This document shows, piece by piece, positions 7,256-33,370 of a stretch of DNA of 43,605 nt. Origin of the DNA: a virus; the IMG/VR virus record IMGVR_UViG_3300025162_000081, positions 1 to 43,605 of that record. One strand, given 5' to 3'. The notes under the pieces were generated by a model. That model had not been told where the DNA came from, did not search any database, and saw nothing but the letters and a program-made list of their open reading frames with translations. The position numbers and the translations under genes were made by a program. Positions within the stretch are counted from its first letter, which is position 1; each line of letters begins with the position of its first letter.

Positions 7256-7928
7256 TATGAATATCACATTTTTGTCGGATACACACAGCAAACATAAACA
7301 ATTGCTCAATCATCTTCCTGGAGGTGATTTAATTGTCCACGCGGGAGACTTAACCTCAGTTGGTTTCAAACATGAAATTGAAGATTTTTGTAAATGGTTT
7401 GAAAAATTAAAATATTCCAATAAAGTATTTATTGCTGGTAATCATGATCACGGATTTGAAAGAGATCATAATAGTGCATATGAAATTGTTAAAAAATATA
7501 AAATAAACTATCTTCAAGATAGTATGATTGAAATTGATGGAATTAATATATGGGGGTCACCTTGGCAACCAGAATTTTGTAATTGGGCATTCAATTTACC
7601 AAGAAACGGTTGGCAACTTGCAGAAAAATGGAACTATATACCAGAAGATACTGACATTTTAATTACTCACGGTCCACCATTTGGATGTTTAGATATTGTA
7701 AATGGTAGAAAAGAAAATATAGGATGTGAGTTATTAACTGAACGTCTTAAAATAGTTAAACCTAAAATTCATGTTTATGGACATATACATTCTGGATATG
7801 GTTATAAGTTCGATGGTAATACACATTATTTTAATGCTTCTGTATTAAATGAAAAATATGAATATACTAATAAGCCATTGACAATTGATTGGAATAAAGA
7901 AACAAATGAAATAACATTTTTAAAATGA
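7230..7928 (+). CDS. calcineurin-like metallophosphoesterase
   Basis: Motifs LSDTH, HAGDL (GD), FIAGNHD (GNHD), ITHGPP, YGHIH. Alternative ATG at 7257 avoids the overlap with 7001..7255. Confidence 0.75.
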   Translation: MKIVKIKNNMNITFLSDTHSKHKQLLNHLPGGDLIVHAGDLTSVGFKHEIEDFCKWFEKLKYSNKVFIAGNHDHGFERDHNSAYEIVKKYKINYLQDSMIEIDGINIWGSPWQPEFCNWAFNLPRNGWQLAEKWNYIPEDTDILITHGPPFGCLDIVNGRKENIGCELLTERLKIVKPKIHVYGHIHSGYGYKFDGNTHYFNASVLNEKYEYTNKPLTIDWNKETNEITFLK

Positions 7929-8197
7929 ATGAAGAATATAAAAAAGTTTGGAAAGAATATTTGACTGAATATTTAAAAGACTACACAGTAAAAGATAATA
8001 AAAGTATTTATAGTCATTATAATGGTTATAATGATGATTACAAATTAAAGATTGTGGATTACACTCAAATGTTGAAAGAGAAAAAAGAAGATCCTAAAGT
8101 AGCAAATGAAAAAATTTTAGAAAAAATACCTATTGCTGAAATTGAAAAATTCTTACGTAAAAAGAAATTAGAAAATTTAAAAAATAAAGAAGAATGA
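7925..8197 (+). CDS. small hypothetical protein ending in the shared C-terminal tail ..KFLRKKKLENLKNKEE
   Basis: ATGA start/stop coupling with neighbours. Tail is shared with at least 9 other small ORFs (see findings). Confidence 0.5.
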   Translation: MNEEYKKVWKEYLTEYLKDYTVKDNKSIYSHYNGYNDDYKLKIVDYTQMLKEKKEDPKVANEKILEKIPIAEIEKFLRKKKLENLKNKEE

Positions 8198-8412
8198 ATT
8201 ATTCATTAGAAGATATTATGAAAGATATCTCAATTATAAAATATAGAAATCAATTTGAATGTGACTTTAATGACCATGAATATGAATATCAAAGGGAGTA
8301 TCGTAGAATGGAAGTTGAATGGAAAGAAAAATTGGATAATATTGATATTAAGTACATTGAAAAGTATTTGAGAAAAAAGAAATTAGAAAAATTAGAAAAA
8401 ATAAATCAATAA
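8194..8412 (+). CDS. small hypothetical protein ending ..KYLRKKKLEKLEKINQ (shared tail)
   Basis: 72-aa ORF, overlapping start/stop with neighbours. Confidence 0.5.
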   Translation: MNYSLEDIMKDISIIKYRNQFECDFNDHEYEYQREYRRMEVEWKEKLDNIDIKYIEKYLRKKKLEKLEKINQ

Positions 8413-10006: not shown

Positions 10007-10455
10007 TGGAAAAGGAAATTAAAAGGCTTGAGGAACAGATTGCTAAATGTGATGTTAAATTATCAAATAGTTCTTTTGTTGATAAAGCACCAAAAGATAT
10101 TATTTTAAAAGAACAACAAAAAAAGAAAGACTTTACAGCACAATTAGAAATTATAAGAAAACAATTAGAAAATTCTAAATCAGTTAGTAAAGATTACTAT
10201 GACGATGAAATTTGTCAATTCACAGTTGGCACAACTGTTTCCTATTTTAAGATACCAAGAACAGAAAGAAAAAAAGAATTTCTAATTTCTAAATTAGATA
10301 GTGTAGAAAAAATAAATTGGCATATTCAATATTTACGTGAACAAAAGACTAATATTGAAATATACAGTGAAGAATGGTATAACTTTATTTATAATGAGGA
10401 AATCACATCTAATGAAATAAATGAATTATTTGAAATTTTTAGGAAATTTGTATGA
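10006..10455 (+). CDS. hypothetical coiled-coil protein
   Basis: 149 aa. ATGG/TAATG-type coupling to neighbours. Confidence 0.45.
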   Translation: MEKEIKRLEEQIAKCDVKLSNSSFVDKAPKDIILKEQQKKKDFTAQLEIIRKQLENSKSVSKDYYDDEICQFTVGTTVSYFKIPRTERKKEFLISKLDSVEKINWHIQYLREQKTNIEIYSEEWYNFIYNEEITSNEINELFEIFRKFV

Positions 10456-10853
10456 AAGATATTCTGAGAAAAATAATATATGGTGCAGAAATAACAATTG
10501 TAAATGACACTGATGCATATTTGAATAAATATAGAAATGCTTCTCAAAAAATTGATATTTCTTATGCTAATATTCTACTATTCTTAAAAATAATAGGCTT
10601 TGATAGTGGAAATTTTGAAACTGGTGAAAGACATTATAGATTAGAAGAACCATTTTATTCTGTTAAAGATAAAATTAAAACTATTCATCTTGGAAAAATT
10701 GGAGAATGTATTGAAAGTCATAAACCAGCATACTATGTTACATATCCAGTATTTAAAGAATTAGAAAAAGCATATAATGATTTGAGAAATCAATTATTAC
10801 GAAAAGAAAAATTAAAAAAAATAGAAAATTATGGGAGTAATGAGTTGCTATAG
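10452..10853 (+). CDS. hypothetical protein ending ..LLRKEKLKKIENYGSNELL (variant of the shared tail)
   Basis: 133 aa. Confidence 0.45.
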   Translation: MKDILRKIIYGAEITIVNDTDAYLNKYRNASQKIDISYANILLFLKIIGFDSGNFETGERHYRLEEPFYSVKDKIKTIHLGKIGECIESHKPAYYVTYPVFKELEKAYNDLRNQLLRKEKLKKIENYGSNELL

Positions 10854-11088
10854 AAATAATTGTGAAAATATAATGTGTGATATATATGTTAATGGTATTG
10901 GTTATGTTTGTTACGAATGTCAGAGTGAGTTTAAAGAATATTTAGCATCAAACGGAATTGTAGTAGAAACAGAAGGAGAAATAAAAAGAGAGTTACAAAA
11001 ATTTATGGAGTCTGAAAAAGATGCATACACAAAAGGAAAAAATATGAGTGTTGACGAATTTTTTAATGAATATAGAAAAGATTATTGA
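10831..11088 (+). CDS. small Cys-rich (probable zinc-binding) protein
   Basis: CYRNNCENIMC .. CYECQ pattern in the first 40 aa. Confidence 0.4.
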   Translation: MGVMSCYRNNCENIMCDIYVNGIGYVCYECQSEFKEYLASNGIVVETEGEIKRELQKFMESEKDAYTKGKNMSVDEFFNEYRKDY

Positions 11089-11240
11089 TATGATATTAGT
11101 AATTTTAATTATAATAGTATTTATTGATATGAATATCATTAATATGATAAGATTTTTTGTTTCAAAAAAATACTTTGATACATTTTTTATCACTCAAAAA
11201 CAATTAAGAAAACTTAAATTAATTAAAATACAAAAAAATA

Positions 11241-11474
11241 GTGAAAACTTGTAAAAAGATTTCAACTGGAGAGATATTTGAATATGAACAATGTGTTTCT
11301 TATCCTGTATTTGATAGAACTCGAAATAACGGCACAATATATTTTGAATTAATTTCAAAAGGTAAGTTTGTTCTGGGTAAGTATATTGGTGAGGACGAAT
11401 TTTATGATGAATATATTGATATTAAAAAAGAAAGAAGACTTAAATTAGAAAAATTAAATCAAATTCTCCAATAA
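11241..11474 (+). CDS. hypothetical protein (GTG start) ending ..KKERRLKLEKLNQILQ (tail variant)
   Basis: No ATG start; weak. Confidence 0.25.
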   Translation: MKTCKKISTGEIFEYEQCVSYPVFDRTRNNGTIYFELISKGKFVLGKYIGEDEFYDEYIDIKKERRLKLEKLNQILQ

Positions 11475-12397
11475 AACCCTTTATATTTAGTATTTTTTGC
11501 TATCGCCTTTCTTAAGTTTTGAATACATATTTCATTATAATTTTTTATTTCCTTAATATTATTCCAAATCCTAACTATACTTCCTTTTTCGTCTATTTGT
11601 TTAATGTTAGTATATTCTCTCGTATTTAAATTTAATTTTTTAATATTATTCTCAATTTCGGCTTTTTCTAAAAAGTTTAATGAATAATAATAATTTTTAG
11701 CATGCCTACATCTATCTTGTAAAACGAAACTTATAGAACGTGGATTAACATTCATTTCTCTTGAGCATTCTTTTATACTGTTAAATTTTTTTATATAATT
11801 TCCAAACATATCATATTGATATATCTCTATGTTTGTACATTTATTTTTATTATCTCTTATTGGTATATTATTTTCTTTTAATATTTTAGTAATAGTTTCT
11901 CTATCAATTTTTAATTCTATTGATATTTTTTTAATTGATAATTTATTAAAATATAATTCTTTAACTACATCAAGATATTTGCTCCTTTTTAATTTGTATG
12001 CTTTTGATACATTATTTCTATGTTCGTTTGTCCATTTCAATTCTAAATTTGTTGCCGCAAATGCTCTAGAATTATATCCATTTTTATAAGAGTTATATTC
12101 ATCAATATAATACTGTTCTCTTTTTATGCAACTATCACGATCACACTCTTCAATTATTTCAAATATTATATTATCAATTCCATACTTATTGACCGCATTT
12201 TGTAAAGAAGGTGAGTTAGATATATTTTTTGATAGTTTTAAAATATGACTGAGCCATCTTTTATGAAACCCATTTTTATTAGAAGTACTACCAATATAAA
12301 CTTTACCATTATTGTTAATAAAACTTATCTTATATACACCAATACTTTTAGGGAATATTTTTTTATCATTTATCGTATATTTCATTTTATATTTCAT
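11459..12397 (-). CDS. GIY-YIG homing endonuclease with NUMOD1-type C-terminal DNA-binding modules
   Basis: N-terminus IGVYKISFINNNGKVYIGSTSN....R...H is the GIY-YIG motif. C-terminal ..KGFYWRI helix module. Confidence 0.8.
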   Translation of the reverse strand: MKYKMKYTINDKKIFPKSIGVYKISFINNNGKVYIGSTSNKNGFHKRWLSHILKLSKNISNSPSLQNAVNKYGIDNIIFEIIEECDRDSCIKREQYYIDEYNSYKNGYNSRAFAATNLELKWTNEHRNNVSKAYKLKRSKYLDVVKELYFNKLSIKKISIELKIDRETITKILKENNIPIRDNKNKCTNIEIYQYDMFGNYIKKFNSIKECSREMNVNPRSISFVLQDRCRHAKNYYYSLNFLEKAEIENNIKKLNLNTREYTNIKQIDEKGSIVRIWNNIKEIKNYNEICIQNLRKAIAKNTKYKGFYWRI

Positions 12398-14584: not shown

Positions 14585-15003
14585 TTATCTCTATTTTTAC
14601 CTAGATGATATCCATCACAGTAAATACATTTATACACTGAAAAATGTTTATCCATTTTTTTCGCCATACTATCTGCAGCTTTCTTTGCTGTTTCCTTAGT
14701 ATTATACATCACCTTTAGTTTACCATCCTCTCTCTGGTGACTTCTAATACTAAATAGACCCATTGCGTTGCCTGTAATAAAAAAGTTCTTAAAGGCTCTC
14801 TTTAATGGTAATTGTTCTTTAAGTCCAAGAAACAAATTTTCAACTTTAATTTTCTTATATTTTAATAATAAGTCAATTGCAATCCACAAAATTGCTAATA
14901 TACTACAAATAGCGCCAAACCACAAATAAAATTGGTGTATATGGTAAATAACTAACCATACACTAAGTAACAATATAAATAACGGATATTTTAATGTTTT
15001 CAT
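14578..15003 (-). CDS. membrane protein with C-terminal Cys motif (..YKCIYCDGYH)
   Basis: Two N-terminal TM segments. Confidence 0.45.
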   Translation of the reverse strand: MKTLKYPLFILLLSVWLVIYHIHQFYLWFGAICSILAILWIAIDLLLKYKKIKVENLFLGLKEQLPLKRAFKNFFITGNAMGLFSIRSHQREDGKLKVMYNTKETAKKAADSMAKKMDKHFSVYKCIYCDGYHLGKNRDNK

Positions 15004-15287
15004 TTTAATAATCTTAATTTTTCTAGTTTTTGTTTTCTGATATTTTGAATTTTTTTCATTTCAAATAATTTGATATCATATTCTGTAAATATGTCTTTAA
15101 TTGATTGTGTTGAGTCTATGTAAGTATATAATAATTTATTTTTTAAAAATATTTGTTTTTTATTTGTGCCTAATTTTTTTAAAATATTTTTAAAGAAATT
15201 GAACCCAAGTAAAAGGTAAAAAATCATAAATATAGAACATATAAATGATATAAAAAATAGTATTATTAATATTAAAACATCTAGCAT
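15000..15287 (-). CDS. small membrane protein ending ..IRKQKLEKLRLLK (tail variant)
   Basis: N-terminal TM. 95 aa. Confidence 0.4.
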   Translation of the reverse strand: MLDVLILIILFFISFICSIFMIFYLLLGFNFFKNILKKLGTNKKQIFLKNKLLYTYIDSTQSIKDIFTEYDIKLFEMKKIQNIRKQKLEKLRLLK

Positions 15288-16078: not shown

Positions 16079-16358
16079 AATTATGAAATATTTAACTTTA
16101 GAACATTTAGGTACATTACCTACACCAAGATTACTTACTTACTATAAAATAGTTAGAAGGAAAATTAGAAGGCATCAGAATTCATTATATTGTGAGTGTT
16201 GTGGCACACCTGTTTATCAATTATATGGTAAATTAAATACAAAAGAAGAAAATGAAAAATTGAAACTAGAATTTGAAACTGATCTTCATGATAGTGAAAA
16301 CTATCTTGAATCAATAAAAACATTATTAAACACAAGAGAACACGTAAAACGAAAATGA
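16062..16358 (+). CDS. hypothetical protein (CxxC pair)
   Basis: 98 aa. CECCGTP motif. Confidence 0.4.
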   Translation: MKIYIKIMKYLTLEHLGTLPTPRLLTYYKIVRRKIRRHQNSLYCECCGTPVYQLYGKLNTKEENEKLKLEFETDLHDSENYLESIKTLLNTREHVKRK

Positions 16359-17029
16359 AACATTACGATAGTTTTGAGAATATTAAGTACGACCAACTTT
16401 TGTTGGGTGAAGAAATCTGGGCATCAAATAAAATTGATGGTCAGAATTTTTGTGCTAAATATTCACCGAGACAAAAAGAATTTACTATGTTTGGATCTAA
16501 AAATCAAAATGTAGATGAAACAAGTGAGCAATTTGGTAAAGCAGTTTTGTATTTCAAACAAAATATGGCTGATACTCTAAAACAAATCATCATAAACAAT
16601 TCAAAAAAAGGTGGAGTATTTACTGGCGTTGAAGAAATTACAGTATTTTGTGAGTGGTACGGTGAGAACACTTTTAGTGGATTTCATGTGCCTGGCGAAG
16701 AATTAAAATTATGTCTAATAGATGTGTTCTTGAAAAAGAAAGGCTACATTGAACCAAAAATATTCTATAAACTCTTTGATGGCTACAGTAATATTGAAGT
16801 ACCAGAACTCATATATAGTGGCAAACTAACAAAGGATTTCATCAATTCTATTGTGAATAATGATTGGACTAAGCCTGGTTGTTTATATCCAACTGTTAAA
16901 GAAGGTGTAGTTTGTAAACGATCAACTTTAATGAAAGGTCAAAGAATGCCAAAGGCAAAAATAAAAACTGGATGGTGGTTAAATAAATTGACAGAATTAT
17001 ATCCTGATAGATGGAAAGAATTAGAATGA
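16355..17029 (+). CDS. Rnl2-family RNA ligase, nucleotidyltransferase domain only
   Basis: N-terminus aligns with T4 RNA ligase 2 as I recall it: HYDSFENIKYDQL...IWASNKIDGQNFC vs KYSSLENHYNSKF...EWVAREKIHGTNFS (motif I KxxG lysine). Later EEITVFCEWYGE and EGVVCKR (motifs IV/V). 224 aa, so it lacks the Rnl2 C-terminal domain. Confidence 0.65.
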   Translation: MKHYDSFENIKYDQLLLGEEIWASNKIDGQNFCAKYSPRQKEFTMFGSKNQNVDETSEQFGKAVLYFKQNMADTLKQIIINNSKKGGVFTGVEEITVFCEWYGENTFSGFHVPGEELKLCLIDVFLKKKGYIEPKIFYKLFDGYSNIEVPELIYSGKLTKDFINSIVNNDWTKPGCLYPTVKEGVVCKRSTLMKGQRMPKAKIKTGWWLNKLTELYPDRWKELE

Positions 17030-18242
17030 ACTACTAAGTAGTTTCCTTACAAAGATTATACTTTATAAGAACTTTAGATAAATCTAAAGGCTCGTTCATA
17101 GAAGCAAAGTGATTTCCGAACCACCTATTCAATATATTTATGGCTGAATTTAAATCACGGTCTATAATTATGGTGTCTGATAACTGAACTTCCCTATTAC
17201 CAAGACTTATTTTATCTTTAAATAGTTTTCCAGTTAGACAGTTAATTTGTGTTGTCCATTTTTCATCAATTTTCACCAAGTTGGTATTTTTTGCTTGACA
17301 CTTATATGTAAGGAATTGTAGAAACATATTGATATTAGATTGACTAAATGACTTTCTAATACCTTTTTTATTCTCATTCACTCCTTCTGTTGACATTAGC
17401 CTCTTAACTGTTAGATCACCAACTACAATTGTATTGTAGTTCATATTCGATAACTTTTTACTCTGAATATGAAGAGTTTGTTTTATTTGTTCGTTCTTTT
17501 TATGATAACATTTATTTAATGTTTTTTTCAATAATAAGTTTCTATTTGATCCTTTTGTTGTTTTACTCCTTTTGTTTTGTATTTTTGCTATTTGTTTCTG
17601 ATAATAATCATTAATTTTTTTAGATTTATTTTTTAATACAATCATACCACCTTTATTATCTATTCCTGTTCCTAATTTACTTAACCCCAAATCAATAGCA
17701 AGAACTTTAGTTTTAACATTAACATCATTAAAATATTCTATTTTATCGTCAATCACCAAATCACACAACCATTTATGTCTAATAAATTTAATTCTTATTT
17801 CTTTTATTTTTAAATCTTTAATATTTAAATTTGATTTATATTCAAATGGAATTTGATTTAGAAAGAACAATCCTTTTTTTATCATCCATCCTGATTGATT
17901 AAAAGAAATAGTATGAAAATAATTATTTTCTATTTTTCTTGGTGGTTTAGCATTTTTATCTTTTTTTATCAAATTAAAAAATGACCTATAAGATCCATAT
18001 AATTCTGTTGCTATTGTTTGAATTGCCTTTGAATTTAATTTCTTCCAATCTGGATATTCTTCTTTTAATAATGGTAATAAATTATTTAACTTGAATTTAT
18101 CTAAAATTATTTTATCTGTTTCATATTTATCTTGTTGTATATCAAGCAATTTATTCCATATATCTTTACGAATATCAGATAATTCTTGTAATTCAAGAAT
18201 TTGTTCTTTTGATGGAAATAATCTTATTTGATACGTCTTCAT
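17030..18242 (-). mobile_element. IS200/IS605-family tnpB-only (IS1341-like) element; ends not determined
   Basis: TnpB ORF with no adjacent tnpA. Its stop is only 5 nt from the convergent RNA-ligase stop, so any right-end/omega-RNA scaffold must overlap 3' sequence there. Confidence 0.3.
17034..18242 (-). CDS. tnpB: TnpB (IS605 OrfB) RuvC-like RNA-guided-nuclease family protein
   Basis: N-terminus MKTYQIRLFPSKEQ. RuvC-I VLAIDLGLSKLGTG. C-terminal CLTGK...IIDRDLNSAINIL (RuvC-III DRDxNAAxNI). 402 aa. Confidence 0.8.
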   Translation of the reverse strand: MKTYQIRLFPSKEQILELQELSDIRKDIWNKLLDIQQDKYETDKIILDKFKLNNLLPLLKEEYPDWKKLNSKAIQTIATELYGSYRSFFNLIKKDKNAKPPRKIENNYFHTISFNQSGWMIKKGLFFLNQIPFEYKSNLNIKDLKIKEIRIKFIRHKWLCDLVIDDKIEYFNDVNVKTKVLAIDLGLSKLGTGIDNKGGMIVLKNKSKKINDYYQKQIAKIQNKRSKTTKGSNRNLLLKKTLNKCYHKKNEQIKQTLHIQSKKLSNMNYNTIVVGDLTVKRLMSTEGVNENKKGIRKSFSQSNINMFLQFLTYKCQAKNTNLVKIDEKWTTQINCLTGKLFKDKISLGNREVQLSDTIIIDRDLNSAINILNRWFGNHFASMNEPLDLSKVLIKYNLCKETT

Positions 18243-18403: not shown

Positions 18404-18862
18404 ATGGAAAAGAAATATACATTTTTTTGGAATGGAGTTTTTAGTAACTGGCATAGAGCGATATTCAAAGTGGATGGTGTTACATTTAGTTCTGGGGAAC
18501 AGTACTTCATGTACAAAAAGGCTATTGTGTTTCACGATTTTGACTCTGCAGAAAAGATTATGAATGAAGAACATCCAAGAAGGCAAAAGGCTTTAGGAAA
18601 ATTAGTAAAGAATTTTAACAAAAAAACTTGGGATGATCTTTGTTATGATATAGTTAAGGATGGATTACGTGAAAAGTTTAAGCAAAATCCTGATATGAAA
18701 GAATATCTAATTAGTTGTAAAGACACTATTATTGTTGAAGCATCACCAGAGGATAGAATTTGGGGAATTGGATACGGAGAATGGGAAGCACTTGAAAATA
18801 TTGATGATTGGGGTCAAAATCTGTTAGGTAAAATATGTACTGAATTGGCTAATGAACTATGA
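18404..18862 (+). CDS. NADAR (YbiA/DUF1768) family protein
   Basis: FFWNGVFSNWHRAIFKVDGVTFSSGEQYFMYKKA...HPRRQKALGK...KFKQNPD...IVEASPEDRIWGIGYG is the family signature end to end. Confidence 0.7.
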   Translation: MEKKYTFFWNGVFSNWHRAIFKVDGVTFSSGEQYFMYKKAIVFHDFDSAEKIMNEEHPRRQKALGKLVKNFNKKTWDDLCYDIVKDGLREKFKQNPDMKEYLISCKDTIIVEASPEDRIWGIGYGEWEALENIDDWGQNLLGKICTELANEL

Positions 18863-19077
18863 AAAAATATTTTGTAATTAAAAACCGTGGTTGGGGTGCA
18901 TTAAAAGAAGGAGACGTGGTTGGTATAACCACTAATGAAGAATATGCAAAATCAAGAGTGGAATGGGCAACTTATTACGAAGAAGTTAAAATGCTTGATT
19001 TTCCAGATTCAATTAAAAAGATTAGAAAAAAGAAATTAAAAAAAATAAATAAAAATGGAAAAGAAATTACCAATTGA
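18859..19077 (+). CDS. small hypothetical protein ending ..IKKIRKKKLKKINKNGKEITN (tail variant)
   Basis: 72 aa. Confidence 0.4.
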   Translation: MKKYFVIKNRGWGALKEGDVVGITTNEEYAKSRVEWATYYEEVKMLDFPDSIKKIRKKKLKKINKNGKEITN

Positions 19078-25133: not shown

Positions 25134-25534
25134 TAAGAGAATTTAAGGAATGGAAGTATCTTGCTTATCACGACTCATTAACTGGGTTATTAAACAGGAA
25201 CTGGCTTAATGCTTATAAAATGAGCATTAAGAATCCTTACGTTTATTTTATTGATATAAATAACTTGACTAAAATTAACAAAATGGGTCATACTGTTGGT
25301 GATATGCACATTATAAATGTTGTTAAGCACATTCCACAAGTTGATGGAGACTATTTAGTTCGTTATGCTGGAGATGAATTTATTTTATTCTCTAATTCTG
25401 AAAATTTAATTAGTACCAACAAATTATATTCTGTTGGTATGTCAATAAATATAGGTGATTTATCAAACTCTATTATGGAAGCTGACATTAAAATGATAGA
25501 ATCTAAAAAAAGATTTAAGAATGAGAACATTTAA
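25109..25534 (+). CDS. stand-alone minimal GGDEF-domain protein (signature AGDEF)
   Basis: YHDSLTGLLNR (DxLTGLxNR). YFIDINNLTKINKMGHTVGD (substrate and metal site). RYAGDEF in place of RYGGEEF. C-terminal EADIKMIESKKRFKN. No sensor or I-site region. 141 aa. Confidence 0.6.
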   Translation: MFSRVTKIIREFKEWKYLAYHDSLTGLLNRNWLNAYKMSIKNPYVYFIDINNLTKINKMGHTVGDMHIINVVKHIPQVDGDYLVRYAGDEFILFSNSENLISTNKLYSVGMSINIGDLSNSIMEADIKMIESKKRFKNENI

Positions 25535-25766
25535 AGAAGGTGACAAATTGCTATGTTGTAAAAAATTTGATCATTTAAAAATTGGAAAATATTATGAAAT
25601 TATTTTATGCGGTTCATACCGACCATCTAATTGTTTTAATATAAGCGGATTTTGGTTTTCATTAAATAAAACATCATCAGTATACCCATATGTTTATGAA
25701 TATTTCTTTACTGAAAAAGAAGAAAGAAAATTAAAATTACAAATACTTAAATTAAAATCTATATGA
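25521..25766 (+). CDS. hypothetical protein ending ..EKEERKLKLQILKLKSI (tail variant)
   Basis: 81 aa. Confidence 0.4.
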   Translation: MRTFKEGDKLLCCKKFDHLKIGKYYEIILCGSYRPSNCFNISGFWFSLNKTSSVYPYVYEYFFTEKEERKLKLQILKLKSI

Positions 25767-26053
25767 AAAATAAATGGCTCTGGTCAATGGTCATAGTAAA
25801 TATGTCAATTGTTATAGGTAGTGTTATACTAAATATTTTCACTAAAAATTATGTTGCTCTAACAGCTTGGGTCAACACTGGATTGTGGATATTTATTACA
25901 TTTATGACTCAAAAAAAAATGTACAAACAACAGGAAGAAATAGGTGATATGTGGACTGAAAATATTGAGTTTATTTTAGGTAGATTTAAAATCGATGAAA
26001 TTCAAAAATGGTTACGTAAAAAGAAATTAGAAAATTTAAAAAACAAAGAATAA
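25763..26053 (+). CDS. small membrane protein ending ..EIQKWLRKKKLENLKNKE (shared tail)
   Basis: Two TM segments. The tail DNA is near-identical to 8150..8194. Confidence 0.45.
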   Translation: MKNKWLWSMVIVNMSIVIGSVILNIFTKNYVALTAWVNTGLWIFITFMTQKKMYKQQEEIGDMWTENIEFILGRFKIDEIQKWLRKKKLENLKNKE

Positions 26054-27063: not shown

Positions 27064-27621
27064 ATGAAGATATATACAAAAACTGGTGATAAAGGCACAA
27101 CATCTTTAATAGGAGGAACTAGAGTATCTAAATATGATGAAAGAGTTGAAGCATATGGAACTTTAGATGAATTGAATTCTTTTTTAGGTTTAATAAGAGA
27201 TTATGATATTGATCAAAAAACTAAAAATCTAATTATTGAAATTCAAGATAGAATATTTACAGCAGAATCTTTGCTTGCGGTAGATCCAGAAAAAATAGTA
27301 AGAAATCTACCAGTGTTATTAGAATATGATATTGAGCTTTTAGAAATTGAAATTGATAAGATGAATGTTGAATTGCCAGAAATATCAAATTTCATCCTAC
27401 CTGGAGGACATAAGGTCGTATCAATTTGTCACATAGCAAGAACTATATGTAGAAGGGGTGAGAGATGTGTCATAAAACTAGTAGAGCATCAACCAAAAAC
27501 AATACAGTCAGAAATGATACTTAAATACTTAAATAGACTATCTGACTTTTTATTTGTGTTATCAAGAAAACTTTCAAAGGATTTTAATGCTACTGAGACT
27601 CCTTGGTCTCCGAAGTATTAA
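27064..27621 (+). CDS. ATP:cob(I)alamin adenosyltransferase, PduO/MMAB type
   Basis: MKIYTKTGDKGTTSL.., ..FILPGG.., ..LNRLSDFLF.. all match the PduO-type family (compare human MMAB KIYTKTGDKG, FILPSGG, LNRLSDYLF as I recall them). Confidence 0.85.
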   Translation: MKIYTKTGDKGTTSLIGGTRVSKYDERVEAYGTLDELNSFLGLIRDYDIDQKTKNLIIEIQDRIFTAESLLAVDPEKIVRNLPVLLEYDIELLEIEIDKMNVELPEISNFILPGGHKVVSICHIARTICRRGERCVIKLVEHQPKTIQSEMILKYLNRLSDFLFVLSRKLSKDFNATETPWSPKY

Positions 27622-27754
27622 TTTCTTTTTCCTCTTTTTCTTCCTCTTTCGTTATTTTAATTCCTTTACCACCACAATCATTACATCTAGCTTTAGTTTC
27701 ACGAATATAACCACTGGCATCACACGTGAGACAAATTTTATAGGTATATCCCAT
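27590..27754 (-). CDS. small zinc-ribbon protein (CxxC..CxxCGGKG), 54 aa
   Basis: Own translation: MGYTYKICLTCDASGYIRETKARCNDCGGKGIKITKEEEKEEKEINTSETKESQ. ATG overlaps upstream stop (TAATG). 3' end overlaps the convergent cobalamin-ATR gene by about 30 nt. Confidence 0.3.
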   Translation of the reverse strand: MGYTYKICLTCDASGYIRETKARCNDCGGKGIKITKEEEKEEKEINTSETKESQ

Positions 27755-28221
27755 TAGATATTATATTTTTCTCTATTTTTTATCACTTCTAACTTTTGAG
27801 CTAATAAACCTTCAACATAATTATATACTCTAACTTTAAATTTAGGTGAAGCATTCTCATTTTTATATTCAATAAACAATGAGTGCCATTTATCATCAGC
27901 ATCTATTTTTACTAAAATGTCAGAATCATGATATTTAGGATTTTCAAATGTAATATCTTTACACACTCCTATAATATTATGTTTTTTGTTTTTCTCATTA
28001 GAAAAATCAGACAAATAACACCAATAGCATTGAAATGCTATTTTTTTATCTAATACAATTTCTTTAACCAAATCATAAAAGCTAATATCATATTTTCTAC
28101 AATCTGACTTTAAATCCTTCAAAATAAATGATTTATAATTTACATCCTTCATTTTTGAAAATTCATCTCTAACTGGTTGATCTCTATGAACAAATATTTC
28201 ATATAATTGTAGATGTATCAT
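27754..28221 (-). CDS. paralogue-family protein (N-terminus MIHLQLYEIF.., C-terminus ..EKYNI)
   Basis: Shares internal block IIGVCKDITFEN with 29700..30167 (TGICKDVIFNG) and the family C-terminal KYNI. Confidence 0.45.
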   Translation of the reverse strand: MIHLQLYEIFVHRDQPVRDEFSKMKDVNYKSFILKDLKSDCRKYDISFYDLVKEIVLDKKIAFQCYWCYLSDFSNEKNKKHNIIGVCKDITFENPKYHDSDILVKIDADDKWHSLFIEYKNENASPKFKVRVYNYVEGLLAQKLEVIKNREKYNI

Positions 28222-28697
28222 ATATTATATTTTTCTGTTTCTTTCTTTAATTTTACCATTTTATGTAATGGTTTAGTATCAGCATCATAACCATCAATTA
28301 ATATTGCTGTGTTATTTTTAATTAAAAACCATTCGTCATTTGTATTATCATAATCAATAAATTCTTTATTTTTTTGAATTTTTGGATTTTCTAATTTTAC
28401 TTTAACAAAAAATTCATCTTTATATGAAAAATAGTCAACTTCTGTAATTTTACCTTTAACTGTTGGGTGTTTAAAAATCTTATTTTCACTCTGAAATATA
28501 ATACTTTTATTCATAAGTACTTCATCAAAAAATTCCATAATATTATCAATATACGGACTTTCTGGTATAGATTGATCCATAATATCAGAATCTGCTTTCA
28601 GATATTTCATAATATCGTTTATAAAGAACATATTATTTCCAGGAAACATATACCAGTTATTCGTATATTTTTCGAATATTTTAAAATTTGTTATCAT
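28218..28697 (-). CDS. paralogue-family protein (N-terminus MITNFKIFEKY.., C-terminus ..EKYNI)
   Basis: 159 aa. ATGA overlap with downstream gene. Confidence 0.45.
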   Translation of the reverse strand: MITNFKIFEKYTNNWYMFPGNNMFFINDIMKYLKADSDIMDQSIPESPYIDNIMEFFDEVLMNKSIIFQSENKIFKHPTVKGKITEVDYFSYKDEFFVKVKLENPKIQKNKEFIDYDNTNDEWFLIKNNTAILIDGYDADTKPLHKMVKLKKETEKYNI

Positions 28698-28925
28698 TTA
28701 TTTCTCTTTTTTGTATCTTTAACAGCATCTCTTTTAACATACAATAGATACTCACCTTTAGTCGTTGTTAGATTATAAACAAACTGACCCTCATTAATAG
28801 CACTTATTATTTCAAGATACTCATCAATTTCATCTTTAGATAATTGACTGCACTTTGATAGTTCTTGTAATGCCATTTCTTTGGTAATTTCTTCAGATTT
28901 TATTATCTCTGTCTTTTTCATAGTT
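28694..28925 (-). CDS. small hypothetical protein (MKKTEIIKSEE.., 77 aa)
   Basis: I prefer the internal ATG at 28925. The track's longer 28694..29065 form would overlap the ankyrin gene by about 100 nt. Confidence 0.35.
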
Positions 28926-28967
28926 GGTAAACTTATATTTTGTATAATAAACCTTATTAGTTTATTA

Positions 28968-29699
28968 TCATAAATTGTATTTATCATTCTCTTTTTTAAG
29001 ATTATATCTCTCAAATTGTTTAGGATATTTTTCTTGTAACTCTTTAACTTTATCTTCGTCTCCATTATTTATCAAATAATCTATGAAATCATCCCCATTT
29101 TCATCTTTAAAATTCCAATCTGCTCCCAACTCTATTAATTTATCTACAACACTATAATAATTATAAACTTTATATCTAATATGTGTAGCAAACATTAAAG
29201 CTGTTCTTTTAGTATAGGATTGCGCATCTAAATCCGCACCATATTTTAATAATAATTCAATGACTTTAGTTACTTTTGATGGTGTAAATTTCAAATTAGT
29301 AATGGCATTCATTATTGGAGTTTTATTTACACCATTTCTTACATTTGGATCTGCGCCTTGATTCAATAAGTCTTCTATCTTATCCAAATTTAAATTTCTT
29401 ATAGCTCCAAATAATTCTTTACTATTAACTGTATTTGACTCAGATATGTTATTTTTTTTTATAAAATTCTTATGAACTAAATATTTCAAATAATTATACA
29501 TCTCTTTAGAATTTGTTAAATCTACACCATAGTTATTAAATAAATAATGATTTATAAATTCTAAAACATGATCCTCAGTCACTGATTCATGTAAATCTTT
29601 AATATTTTTAATGGATTTTTTATATAGCGCGGGAAATAAACTTGTTATAAGTTTAAGATTAACGTTAATTCCCTCATATACTTTAAATTTAGTTATCAT
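28968..29699 (-). CDS. ankyrin-repeat protein with family termini (MITKFKVYEGI.. / ..KYNL)
   Basis: About 4 ankyrin repeats (..GADPNVRNGVNKTPIMNAI.., ..LLKYGADLDAQSYTKRTALMFAT.., ..LIELGADWNFKDENGDDFIDYLI..). Confidence 0.65.
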   Translation of the reverse strand: MITKFKVYEGINVNLKLITSLFPALYKKSIKNIKDLHESVTEDHVLEFINHYLFNNYGVDLTNSKEMYNYLKYLVHKNFIKKNNISESNTVNSKELFGAIRNLNLDKIEDLLNQGADPNVRNGVNKTPIMNAITNLKFTPSKVTKVIELLLKYGADLDAQSYTKRTALMFATHIRYKVYNYYSVVDKLIELGADWNFKDENGDDFIDYLINNGDEDKVKELQEKYPKQFERYNLKKENDKYNL

Positions 29700-30167
29700 T
29701 CATAAATTAAATTTAGTTCTAAGTTTATATTGTTCAGTATCTTCATCTGAATGCACTATTACTTCATCATCTATTGAAGCATCATCTTCTAAACTATCCA
29801 ATGAAATATGAATATGTTCTATATTAAAAGTATTTTCTGGTTTAGCTTCAAATCCACCATTAAAAATAACATCTTTACATATTCCAGTTAGATTTTTACC
29901 ATAATCCTCACTATCAAATGTTATAAGTTTGCCAACTAATAATTTTTTAACAAATCTAATATATTCTTCTTCTTTATCTTTTACTATGTTTTTATCATCA
30001 GGTATATAATATCCACCTCTTACAAATTTTTTAGTTTCTCTTTCATTATTAGCAGATTCTTCCATTTCATTAGCAAGTTTATACAAACTAATATATAGAT
30101 TCCCATCTTTTTCAACTATGCCATTCCACTTAAACCTATATTCTTCATATGTTTTTAGATATTTCAT
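29700..30167 (-). CDS. paralogue-family protein (MKYLKTYEEY.. / ..TKFNL)
   Basis: 155 aa. Paralogue of 27754..28221. Confidence 0.45.
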   Translation of the reverse strand: MKYLKTYEEYRFKWNGIVEKDGNLYISLYKLANEMEESANNERETKKFVRGGYYIPDDKNIVKDKEEEYIRFVKKLLVGKLITFDSEDYGKNLTGICKDVIFNGGFEAKPENTFNIEHIHISLDSLEDDASIDDEVIVHSDEDTEQYKLRTKFNL

Positions 30168-30492
30168 AGATTATATTTTTTAATTCTTCTACTTGCTTGT
30201 CAAATTCTTCTTCATTTTCAATAAGATTACCATTACCATCACATAGTTCATATTGATAATGATTAGCACCCTCACCTGATTCATTAAGCCACTCTTCTAT
30301 TCCATAAGTAATACACTCTGATCTGTTCCTTTCGGAAGATGCAGATCCTGTGTTATAATACTTATTAAAATATTCAGTATCTTCTATTTTTTTTAATGGA
30401 ACATCAAGACTACCACTGAAAGTAACTTTCAAAATTTTTTCAGTAGGATCATATTTTTTATTTAAGGATTCGTTAAATCTTTTAATTTTCAT
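30145..30492 (-). CDS. paralogue-family-like small acidic protein (MKIKRFNESL..)
   Basis: 115 aa. 23-nt overlap with next gene. Confidence 0.4.
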   Translation of the reverse strand: MKIKRFNESLNKKYDPTEKILKVTFSGSLDVPLKKIEDTEYFNKYYNTGSASSERNRSECITYGIEEWLNESGEGANHYQYELCDGNGNLIENEEEFDKQVEELKNIIYEISKNI

Positions 30493-30514
30493 ATTCTATA
30501 TATTATTTTTTAAA

Positions 30515-30538
30515 ATAAAAAAACCTCAGAGGTTTTCA
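30515..30538. terminator. weak hairpin AAACC-tcaga-GGTTT with T-tract on the minus strand
   Basis: A/T tracts on both sides. Function uncertain. Confidence 0.25.
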
Positions 30539-30595
30539 CTTTGAAAATGTTAAAATACGACTTATTTATATTTATATATACATATAAAACTTTGT

Positions 30596-30739
30596 ATGAA
30601 AATTCAAAAAACATTCACAATTGAAGAAGATATTTCTAAGGAATTTGATAAAATATCAAAAGAGAAATCAATTAATAAATCTTTATTTTTAGAAAATGCA
30701 ATGAAAGATTTTATTGAAAAAAATAAGAAAGAAAAATGA
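30596..30739 (+). CDS. ribbon-helix-helix small protein, 47 aa, directly upstream of a GIY-YIG gene
   Basis: Own translation: MKIQKTFTIEEDISKEFDKISKEKSINKSLFLENAMKDFIEKNKKEK. Stop TGA overlaps endonuclease ATG (ATGA). Confidence 0.45.
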   Translation: MKIQKTFTIEEDISKEFDKISKEKSINKSLFLENAMKDFIEKNKKEK

Positions 30740-31386
30740 TAGGTATATACAAAATTACAAATATTATAAATAATAAATGTTATATAGGTTCATCAGTAGA
30801 TATTGTAGGTAGATGGTATCATCATAAAACAACATTAAAATTTAATAAACATCATTCAATAAAATTACAAAGATCCTATAATAAATACGGTTCAGATAAT
30901 TTTAAGTATGAAATTGTAGAAGAATGTGAAACAGAATTATTATTAATTAGAGAAGAATACTATATCAACTTATTTGATTGTTATAATAATGGATATAATT
31001 TTTCAATACCATCGAATTGTGTTATGCTTGGCAGACATCATAGTGAAGAAACAAAAGAAATACTTAGAGAAAAAAGTAAGGGTAATAAAAATAGATTAAA
31101 TATGACATTTAGTGATGAATCTAAAAAGAAAATAAGTGACAAATTAAAAGGACGGAAATTGTCAGATGAAACTAAACTAAATATGAGCAAAGGACAGAAG
31201 AATAGAATTTATTCAGACGAAGACTTGAAAAAAATTACTGAAATAAATAAATCTAGAATAGGAATACCGTTATCAGATGAGCATAAACTTAAATTAAGTT
31301 TAGCAAAAGTAGGAAAGAAACAAAGTCCAGAAACTATTGCAAAAAGAGTACAAAAAAACACTGGTCAAAAAAGAAAAAAAACTTAA
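30736..31386 (+). CDS. GIY-YIG homing endonuclease with NUMOD3 repeats
   Basis: MIGIYKITNIINNKCYIGSSVDIVGRWYHH (GIY..YIG..R..H). Several SEETK/SDESKKKIS/SDETK NUMOD3 repeats in the C-terminal half. Confidence 0.8.
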   Translation: MIGIYKITNIINNKCYIGSSVDIVGRWYHHKTTLKFNKHHSIKLQRSYNKYGSDNFKYEIVEECETELLLIREEYYINLFDCYNNGYNFSIPSNCVMLGRHHSEETKEILREKSKGNKNRLNMTFSDESKKKISDKLKGRKLSDETKLNMSKGQKNRIYSDEDLKKITEINKSRIGIPLSDEHKLKLSLAKVGKKQSPETIAKRVQKNTGQKRKKT

Positions 31387-33157: not shown

Positions 33158-33370
33158 CTACAAAGATACAAAAAATAAATTAAAAAAACAAGAAAGGAAG
33201 TAACATTTTTTAATATATAACATCCAGTTATATGACACTTCATATAATTCTAAATAGTCTTTGATATAGAAAATTTTATTAATAATATTTTTTAATCTTC
33301 TTGCTACTTTATTGCCTTCCTTTTCTTCTGGCTTTAATTTTATATCTTCAAATGCCTTAATATGTTTCAT
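33158..33370 (-). CDS. paralogue-family small protein (MKHIKAFEDI..)
   Basis: First about 30 nt are near-identical in DNA to the start of 33367..33969. Confidence 0.4.
   Translation of the reverse strand: MKHIKAFEDIKLKPEEKEGNKVARRLKNIINKIFYIKDYLELYEVSYNWMLYIKKCYFLSCFFNLFFVSL

Follow-up and report, generated by a model that had tools for sequence, protein, structure and literature searches.

The stretch of DNA analysed here, called the window throughout (43,605 nucleotides, positions 1 to 43,605 of the IMG/VR virus record IMGVR_UViG_3300025162_000081), contains a family of eight minus-strand genes that is recognisable by the two ends of its proteins. Each protein of this cassette family can be read as three parts, namely an N-terminal leader, an arbitrary body and a lineage-specific C-terminal tail, which here is ..K-(Y/F)-N-(I/L)-COOH. 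Leader and tail are selected as amino-acid sequence, are coupled to one another and are independent of the fold of the body between them. As to what the leader does, we favour, as an even call, the reading that it is akin to the capsid-targeting sequence (CTS) of phage T4 and loads a polymorphic, fast-turnover cargo into the prohead.

A preliminary description of this DNA had proposed the eight genes as a family with a shared N-terminal decapeptide, of which six would end in K(Y/F)N(I/L) and whose bodies would be diverse, ankyrin repeats included. All of this holds: the eight open reading frames (ORFs) are present on the minus strand, seven with the motif and the eighth with the variant MKIKRFNESL, the six C-termini are as proposed with a seventh lost by a 1-nt deletion, and the ankyrin assignment is confirmed by Pfam (Ank_2, E=2e-11). 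The genes are given below, followed by two further genes of the same array; the loci used for comparison carry numbers of the type L254.

27754..28221, minus strand: family member of 155 aa, MIHLQLYEIF ... REKYNI; last cassette of the array that runs from 30492 to 27590
28218..28697, minus strand: family member of 159 aa, MITNFKIFEKY ... TEKYNI; leader and tail motifs, AlphaFold2 model
28968..29699, minus strand: ankyrin family member of 243 aa, MITKFKVYEGI, then an N-terminal domain, ankyrin repeats (Pfam) and ..ERYNLKKENDKYNL, with the C motif duplicated
29700..30167, minus strand: family member of 155 aa, MKYLKTYEEY ... RTKFNL; leader and tail motifs
30145..30492, minus strand: family member that opens the array, its leader being the variant MKIKRFNESL; C motif lost, by comparison with the L254 ortholog
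33158..33370, minus strand: short leader ORF of 70 aa, MKHIKAFEDI; leader motif, no trace of the C motif
33367..33969, minus strand: family member of 200 aa, (MS)MKHIKTFEDF ... SIKFNI; leader and tail motifs
39324..39854, minus strand: solo family member of 176 aa, MRYINIFDKY ... EKFNLLLNIKKFNL, with the C motif duplicated; leader and tail motifs
28694..28921, minus strand: interposed gene of 75 aa, MKKTEIIKSEE..KKRNK, with neither motif and not of the family; conserved in relatives
27590-27754, minus strand: zinc-ribbon gene of 54 aa closing the array, with two CxxC pairs (CLTC..CNDCGGKG); kept in all near-identical strains

The genes are laid out as a six-gene operon-like array (30492 down to 27754), a pair (33969 down to 33158) and a solo gene (39854 down to 39324). 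Seven of the eight ORFs start with M-(K/R/I)-x-(I/L)-K-x-(F/Y)-(E/D)-x-(F/Y/I) or with the one-residue-longer M-I-T-x-F-K-x-(F/Y)-E, and six of the eight end in KYNI, KYNL, KFNL or KFNI. When all six frames of the 43.6 kb were scanned for K[YF]N[ILVM] directly before a stop, the only matches were those six genes, one chance ORF of five codons and an out-of-frame KKYNL*. The two ends are strongly coupled: the C motif is present in six of the seven genes with the N motif and in none of the 80 other genes of the window (Fisher p=1.4e-8), and with five related loci added the association reaches p=2e-14. A strict form of the N-terminal pattern found no match at ORF starts in 75 unrelated viral loci centred on a major vault protein (MVP) gene, out of 80 such loci with 2334 called genes in all.

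The exceptions within the family are instructive. The out-of-frame KKYNL* ends at 30164, inside the 3' end of 30145-30492, and the ortholog of that gene in L254 (the same contig as L060) ends in frame with ..IIKKYNV* and an ATGA overlap with the next gene; the C motif has thus been removed by a 1-nt deletion in the region 30164-30185, where the window has GAAGAATT and the relative GAAATAATT. The frameshifted protein ends in ..ELKNIIYEISKNI, 22 nt inside the next gene, instead of in ..KKYNL*, and the deletion may be a real mutation or an assembly error. The variant leader of this gene recurs in relatives, as in MKIKKFNQ..NKYNL of L011. The 70-aa ORF 33158-33370, for which no homolog was found, is possibly truncated or decaying. 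The annotated N-terminus of its neighbour 33367-33969 is MSMKHIKTFEDF, and the second ATG, at 33963, is likely to be the true start.

That selection acts on the protein rather than on the DNA is seen at both ends. Every free codon position of the leader uses several synonymous codons (111 non-redundant viral leaders), with a mild bias at some positions, where CTA, TAC and CAC are over-used, and the C motif in the window is encoded with TAT/TAC, AAT/AAC and ATA/ATC/TTA before either TGA or TAA. Both ends are retained in homologs from 50%-identity clusters and across 21-42% GC. The last array gene keeps its KYNI ahead of an unrelated gene, and the solo gene 39324-39854 has both motifs despite having no gene downstream on its strand. 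In three genes of the window the C motif is also duplicated internally and in frame, and many of the 33 KYN(I/L)-lineage members compared have a tail extended to about 15 residues, roughly [FY]E.Y.[LI]KK...KYN[LI].

The leader is widespread in viruses. Scanning IMG/VR with a degenerate DNA pattern for MKxIKx[FY]Ex[FY], in which codon 8 was fixed as GAA, gave at least 150 matches in at least 120 loci, and among the matches listed 122 lie at ORF starts. The genes are often in tandem, up to six per locus, on contigs of 21-42% GC and 6-500 kb. A control scan of 596 Gb of cellular genomes gave 121 matches, 30 of them start-like and with heterogeneous free positions; many are N-termini of C5-methyltransferases, and a few lie on probable phage contigs inside metagenome-assembled genomes. 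The logo of the 111 leaders is a 13-mer, MK[HY]IK[LT]FE[QDEN]F[IVL][NS]E, with information at the unconstrained positions 3, 6, 9, 11, 12 and 13 and background from position 14-16 onward. Glu13 is found in 51% of these leaders, after [IVL]-[NS], while the invariance of Glu8 is fixed by the search pattern and is not independent. The bodies behind the leader are unrelated domains, including a RimK ATP-grasp domain (from residue 25), an S-adenosylmethionine (SAM) methyltransferase, a CHAP domain, leucine-rich repeats (LRR), an FAD/NAD oxidase whose Rossmann fold starts at residue 14 and, in the window, ankyrin repeats. The latter, in 28968-29699, are all above the gathering thresholds of Pfam (Ank_2 E=2e-11, Ank_4 E=2e-10, Ank E=5e-10), and the other window members have only sub-threshold matches in Pfam and PHROGs (E >= 0.016). 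Beyond known domains, neither Pfam nor PHROGs has a family for the body of any leader protein.

A further lineage with the leader is the 'uncultured phage' genome LR756500, which together with LR756501 and LR756503 (462-735 kb) provides the best GenBank relatives of the MVP encoded in the window. Seven leader genes starting MKYIKEYEEF(I/V), two of them encoding LRR proteins, lie 4-9 kb from the MVP gene of LR756500, and two further ones lie 158 kb from it. Six of the seven end in NADDFG(F/M/L)(F/L)DN, not in KYN(I/L). As a side observation, such tails are acidic-aromatic and occur on leader proteins at L007 26351-31661 and LR756500 179973-181730; they may resemble the C-terminal tips of single-stranded DNA-binding protein (SSB) or of ribosomal stalk P proteins. 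Searched by tblastn in 50,697 GenBank phage records, two members of the family and two leader proteins from IMG/VR gave no match, and blastn of a 39-nt consensus leader against GenBank phages gave only noise outside the huge-phage records.

What ties the leader to the phage head is its position in a number of these genomes. In loci of the L009 type, the large protein encoded beside the leader gene is a 'head maturation protease' (phrog_207, E=5e-45) with matches in LR756500, in other huge phages, and in the gp21/gp22 'prohead core' genes of T4-like cyanophages, Campylobacter phages and coliphages. In six loci (L009, L041, L066, L096, L100 and L110) the order is a gp55-like gene, a gp4-like gene, one more gene, a gp20-like portal, the leader protein, a gp21-like protease/scaffold and a gp23-like major capsid protein (MCP), and the leader gene thus occupies the slot that in T4 belongs to the prohead core proteins gp67/gp68. 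The head-module leader protein of this group has 112-116 aa and an acidic tail, ..GDDPLAGL. In about a dozen further loci a conserved leader gene of 157-158 aa (MRHLRKFEELDYSTY..) stands directly upstream of the portal. Closer to the window, L011, L049, L339 and L347 (24-29% GC) carry cassettes of its own type (MITKFK../MKIKKFN../..KYN[IL]), and a gp55-like sigma factor, a gp4-like protein, a gp20-like portal and a gp21-like protease are present in L011/L342, L049, L339 and L347; in L347 and L339 the cassettes sit between the gp4-like gene and the portal. LR756500, too, has a T4-type head module. The preliminary description had suggested looking for a prohead-protease gene, and the outcome is split: there is none in the window, and a gp21-like protease is found in the relatives that share its cassettes and in LR756500. 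Counted over the loci listed, leader genes fall within ±6 kb of the protease in 17 of 80, compared with 5 of 80 within ±10 kb of MVP (p=0.01).

Two features of the same head modules are worth recording in their own right. The portal C-termini in L009, L041, L066, L096 and L110 (..EAEDPFAM, ..ADPMGGLGF, ..ENPMMGM) are similar to the end of the leader protein encoded next to them (..GDDPLAGL, ..EEDPLAGL), and going by this likeness of sequence a common binding partner for the tails of portal and leader protein is possible. The MCPs of the same five loci start with MANLINE(A/S)EI, which may be compared with MAKINELLRE of T4 gp24.

In T4, the internal proteins (IPs) IPI, IPII and IPIII are unrelated basic proteins that have only an N-terminal CTS of about 10 residues in common, by which they are brought into the scaffolding core; this CTS, MKTYQEFIAE, is removed by a single gp21 cut, and foreign proteins fused to it are packaged (PMC8442874, PMC3012670). 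The IPs serve as anti-restriction factors, and their loci are polymorphic among T-even phages (PMC3012670). In T4, phiKZ, 201phi2-1 and SPN3US alike, the gp21-type protease cleaves on the C-terminal side of the Glu that ends a (small/hydrophobic)-x-E motif, as at TFE-275 (PMC5694885). By its pattern of residues the leader fits this motif, Glu8 being preceded by [LT]-F, and at the putative cut site the leaders of the window read TFE, AFE, TYE, IFE, VYE and LYE, plus IFD and FNE. Leader and CTS both start with MK, have F7 in common without gaps, and align at [FY][EQ][QE]FI.E with a 3-residue gap; T4 IPI itself starts MKTFKEF (read from NC_000866). In gene order, the succession of lysin and family gene in the window (39858-40391, then 39324-39854, minus strand) mirrors T4 e, ipIII, ipII.

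The analogy with the CTS that the preliminary description had drawn stands in part, with indirect support from a detachable leader, amino-acid selection, the Glu at its end, lineages with a gp21-type protease, head-module genes and fast turnover. Like the T4 IPs with their CTS, these are unrelated proteins bearing a short N-terminal MK peptide that is aromatic and ends at Glu, encoded in hypervariable loci of phages with a gp20/gp21/gp23-type head module, and one member lies directly downstream of a lysin gene. Unlike in T4, however, the consensus is different and longer (MK[HY]IK[LT]FE.F[IV][NS]E versus MKTYQEFIAE), there are far more members per genome, in tandem arrays and with bodies that include repeat domains and enzymes, and a K[YF]N[IL] tail, which T4 lacks, is coupled to the leader; packaging and cleavage of the proteins here are putative. 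The N-terminal propeptides of ejection and inner-head proteins in phiKZ, 201phi2-1 and SPN3US offer a second comparison, since these are likewise giant phages whose gp21-type protease cuts after (A/S/G/T)-x-E, and SPN3US gp53/gp54 are paralogous head proteins with identical N-termini and diverging bodies (PMC5694885). Such propeptides are, however, mostly at least 100 residues long and family-specific, whereas here one leader of 10-13 residues is found across many unrelated families and phage lineages.

If the leader is indeed a CTS-like signal, it would dock the cargo onto the scaffolding core of the prohead, where a gp21-type prohead protease would cut it off after Glu8, or after Glu13 in the long form. 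The mature cargo would stay in the head and enter the host with the DNA, and inside the host it might work early in infection, as an effector or to counter host defences. A second handle for docking or retention, specific to the lineage, could be provided by the KYN(I/L) tail. The tail differs by lineage (KYN(I/L) here, NADDFGFFDN in LR756500, GDDPLAGL in the L009 group), which suggests a co-evolving partner.

This leads us to the points that weigh against a capsid-targeting role. Docking, cleavage and injection are steps that we infer, and the T4 model leaves the C-terminal tail unexplained. The likeness to the T4 CTS is modest, about 5 identities in 10 with a 3-residue gap, in a peptide too short for statistics. 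The leaders of the window are without the second half (..[IV][NS]E) of the wide consensus, and one has Asp and one N-E in place of F/Y-E. There are no head genes and no protease in the window, and the link to a T4-type head rests on the relatives that share its cassettes and on the presence in the window of a gene like T4 gp30.3. Around the protease, about 2% of genes carry the leader, compared with 9 of about 240 called genes in the 168 kb sampled of LR756500; as this share is not clearly above that of LR756500 overall, our claim is limited to particular conserved leader genes at the head module and does not extend to a general enrichment. The T4 late-promoter motif TATAAATA has two copies upstream of the array and is not enriched in the window (18 observed, 16.8 expected), so nothing is concluded from it about the timing of expression. 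Finally, not all bodies that carry the leader look like effectors that a phage would inject, the FAD oxidase and RimK being examples.

One alternative is that leader and tail together dock the proteins to something else made by the phage, be it a hub, a chaperone or a compartment in the cell, and that the proteins do their work within the infected cell and are never packaged. We consider this unlikely. In its favour, the leader is modular and detached from the fold, the rest of the window region consists of accessory, early-type genes, enzymatic bodies (FAD oxidase and RimK) bear the leader, and the coupled C-terminal tail has no precedent in T4. On the other hand, it does not account for the conserved leader genes that adjoin portal and protease in the head modules of several lineages, nor for a leader that ends in Glu as the substrates of gp21 do, and no candidate hub was identified.

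A second alternative, which appears quite improbable, is that these are ordinary tandem paralogs whose conserved ends are the first and last secondary-structure elements of one fold and have no signal role. It draws on the fact that three window members have a common body core, with the body of 27754-28221 being paralogous to those of 28218-28697 and 29700-30167. Relatives (P0024, P0039, P0040 and others) retain leader and ..KYN[IL]. A word-indexed protein search found only 3 and 1 close homologs, which made an exhaustive profile search necessary; a hidden Markov model built from three window paralogs and two orthologs then found 60 cluster representatives (50%-identity clusters) of this 155-aa body family, 34 of them at E≤1e-10. 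Nearly all have 137-181 aa, start with MKY[IL]K.[FY]E or MIT.FK.[FY]E and end in ..(A)EKYN[IL] with minor variants. In a 36-sequence alignment of the 28218-type body, mean column identity is 0.57 over the first 10 residues, 0.78 over the last 5 and 0.42 over the body; we count this conservation of the termini in favour of the capsid-targeting reading. A first AlphaFold2 run with 3 sequences reached a predicted local distance difference test (pLDDT) score of 50 and was unusable; with the 36-sequence alignment, 28218-28697 was modelled at pLDDT 87 and a predicted template modelling (pTM) score of 0.79, as a core of a helix and a bent beta-sheet with a confident C-terminal helix (143-156) before the last three residues. 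The best Foldseek matches in the PDB, archaeal Sm proteins, are weak (E=8e-3) and are not relied on.

The confident C-terminal helix, and the last 20 residues being the most conserved block of this subfamily, are what a structural explanation would lead one to expect. Against it, the same ends are found on ankyrin, LRR, methyltransferase, ATP-grasp and CHAP folds, the conservation of the leader stops abruptly at residue 13, and in the model residues 1-10 form a detached helix at a pLDDT of about 50. Moreover, both leader variants, the shorter and the MIT form, occur on one and the same body type. One relative, P0047, has transmembrane segments in place of the leader and has lost the KYNL tail as well, a joint loss that hints that the two motifs work together.

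Equally, one could imagine that the leader is an expression or processing tag that, for instance, boosts translation initiation or co-translational handling in a host that does not use Shine-Dalgarno sequences. The AT-rich codons, the AAA second codon and the mild codon biases already mentioned (CTA, TAC and CAC) lend themselves to this idea. The pattern of conservation speaks for the protein instead, since it is residues (F/Y7, E8, F10) that are kept while synonymous codons vary freely; most genes of the same phages do without the leader, and the coupling to a C-terminal tail would have no explanation. We therefore give the idea only a slim chance.

The preliminary description had offered the MVP shell as a destination alongside the capsid. 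The gene concerned is the following.

34998..37409, plus strand: MVP homolog of 803 aa (MVP_shoulder, E=2e-26)

In this scenario the tags would direct cargo into a vault-like shell formed by the neighbouring MVP homolog, much as encapsulin cargo-loading peptides or the vault INT domain do, and a short terminal tag on diverse cargo with a shell gene adjacent is indeed what the systems have in common. All eight genes lie within 7.3 kb of the MVP gene, and the adjacency recurs in L060/L254 (MVP 91% identical), in L255 (80%) and in LR756500 (53%), with its seven leader genes 4-9 kb away. The statement that the clusters lie just upstream of MVP is itself only partly correct: one cluster is 1 kb away but divergent, the other is at 4.5-7 kb, and the solo gene is 1.9 kb downstream. 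More importantly, 75 of the 80 MVP-centred viral loci (±10 kb) have no leader gene, including four with 72% MVP identity, and LR756501 has none within ±20 kb of its MVP. Conversely, MVP was present in only one (L060) of the at least 120 leader loci, within the windows fetched; LR756500 has leader genes 158 kb from its MVP, and the protease is the more frequent neighbour, as counted above. Unlike cargo-loading peptides or INT, moreover, the family shows no general co-occurrence with the shell gene over the 80 loci and combines an N-terminal tag with a separate C-terminal tail; no INT-like domain was found by Pfam, and there is no encapsulin gene in the window. Targeting to an MVP shell is thus not supported and in our view very improbable, the tests made did not link MVP functionally to the family, and where it does adjoin cassettes (the window, L254/L255 and LR756500), the two may simply share one hyperplastic region. 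A combined scheme, in which the leader loads the prohead core while the lineage-specific tail docks to an MVP shell that could sit in the capsid as an inner body, is one to which we attach little credence; were it true, the arrays beside MVP would list what a phage vault carries. As a separate observation, MVP homologs are common in viral contigs, with at least 137 in IMG/VR, at 22%-60% GC and on contigs of 5 kb-500 kb.

Irrespective of function, the cassettes turn over quickly. The near-identical strain L003 matches the window at 99.75% identity as far as 29708, a cassette junction, and has different cassettes beyond it, with a mosaic 165-aa variant and an extra degenerate cassette at the position of 29700-30167, and L060/L254 have a different cassette set. 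The gene 33367-33969 is an in-frame fusion, its N-terminal part resembling a 438-aa gene of L060 (74% identity) and its body a 110-aa gene of L060 (56% identity), joined at a vestigial internal leader (..TFQDFESEDF..); in L060/L254 the two cassettes are separate genes. Even near-identical strains differ by the gain, loss, fusion and recombination of arrays at cassette boundaries, and the homology breaks at junctions, together with the fusion at the leader, indicate that the junction sequence serves as a recombination substrate. Such recombination tells us how the family evolves, not what the motifs are for. The mobile PeSL cassettes of T4-type phages are a related case, as there, too, recombination at conserved boundaries reshuffles the small ORFs of hyperplastic regions. 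A PeSL, however, is an intergenic element at the nucleotide level, made up of a promoter and a stem-loop; here neighbouring genes touch or overlap, and what is conserved at their boundary is coding sequence selected for its amino acids.

The remaining explanation, that the motifs are by-products of a DNA or RNA junction element (translational coupling, promoter or recombination site), can point to the ATGA stop/start overlap at several junctions, to the TATAAT within AAATATAAT and to the strain breaks and the fusion just described, but it is largely refuted and scarcely believable given a solo gene with both motifs, a TAA stop and no downstream gene, a last array gene that keeps KYNI before an unrelated gene, the synonymous variation, the retention of both motifs in homologs from 50%-identity clusters and across 21-42% GC, the in-frame internal duplications, and a single out-of-frame copy that the 1-nt deletion explains. 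A purely DNA-level junction repeat, which the preliminary description had named among the findings that would undo its proposal, is rejected on the same synonymous variation, solo gene and duplications. Two specific versions were also discarded, namely KYNI as the product of a -10-like TATAAT or of the ATGA overlap, as the motif persists in the solo gene and in terminal genes, where other stop codons follow it, and inverted repeats of the N-/C-terminal DNA flanking the cassettes, an idea dropped on synonymous motif variation without a formal test.

Should the capsid-targeting reading hold, a string of 13 residues would make it possible to read the set of injected proteins of huge uncultured phages from metagenomic sequence. 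This packaged set would likely hold anti-defence and host-takeover factors, and the bodies seen include ankyrin, LRR, ATP-grasp, methyltransferase and peptidase domains. A mechanism established mainly for T-even phages would extend to a wide and environmentally abundant group with T4-type heads, and anyone wishing to load such capsids with foreign proteins would have in the leader a natural tag. The coupled, lineage-differing C-terminal tail is without T4 precedent and would be a testable addition to the model. The principle is already known from T4; what is new is the consensus, its breadth across phages, the arrays, the variety of bodies and the C-terminal tail coupled to the leader. Searches of the literature turned up no earlier account of the leader or the KYN(I/L) tail, none of CTS-like tags in phages that are huge or uncultured, and none of MVP in huge phages.

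The setting of these genes is that of an AT-rich huge phage, at about 26% GC and with short, tightly packed genes, and contigs near-identical to the window come from freshwater lake metagenomes. Besides the genes discussed, the window encodes glycosyl- and sulfotransferases, an RCC1-repeat protein, TnpB, three GIY-YIG endonucleases, the T4 gp30.3-like protein, NADAR, radical-SAM and GGDEF proteins and a glucosaminidase. The glucosaminidase gene lies directly upstream of the solo gene 39324-39854, the TAA stop of which is followed by a terminator-like hairpin, with no further gene on the strand. The 54-aa zinc-ribbon protein of 27590-27754 has by eye the look of a DnaJ-type zinc finger. An RNA ligase (16355-17029, plus strand; Pfam RNA_ligase from residue 19) has a leader-like start, MKHYDSFENIKYD, and in T4 gene 57B, beside ipI, is also annotated as an RNA ligase.

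Several smaller observations concern mobile elements and non-coding sequence. The three GIY-YIG paralogs, which are homing-endonuclease-like (11459-12397, minus; 30736-31386, plus; 37972-38742, plus), and a TnpB/IS605 OrfB gene (17034-18242, minus) are spread over the region; two of the GIY-YIG genes flank MVP and the cassette arrays. The divergent intergenic region 30493-30740 holds the two copies of TATAAATA, which overlap (30563-30576, minus strand). It also holds a GC-rich hairpin with a T-run behind it, immediately upstream of where the array begins; on the strand opposite to the array, a 47-aa ORF (30596-30739) that looks ribbon-helix-helix-like by eye precedes the GIY-YIG gene. Lastly, the window contains a second family defined by a terminal motif, (L/I)RK(K/E)KL(E/K)x(L/I).., which lies in the last 22 residues of 10 of the 92 called genes (about 0.6 expected from the internal frequency of the pattern), namely 7925-8197, 8194-8412, 10452-10853, 11066-11254, 15000-15287 (minus), 18859-19077, 25521-25766, 25763-26053, 34480-34863 and 40800-41303. 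Their bodies are otherwise unlike one another, and several have N-terminal transmembrane-like segments.

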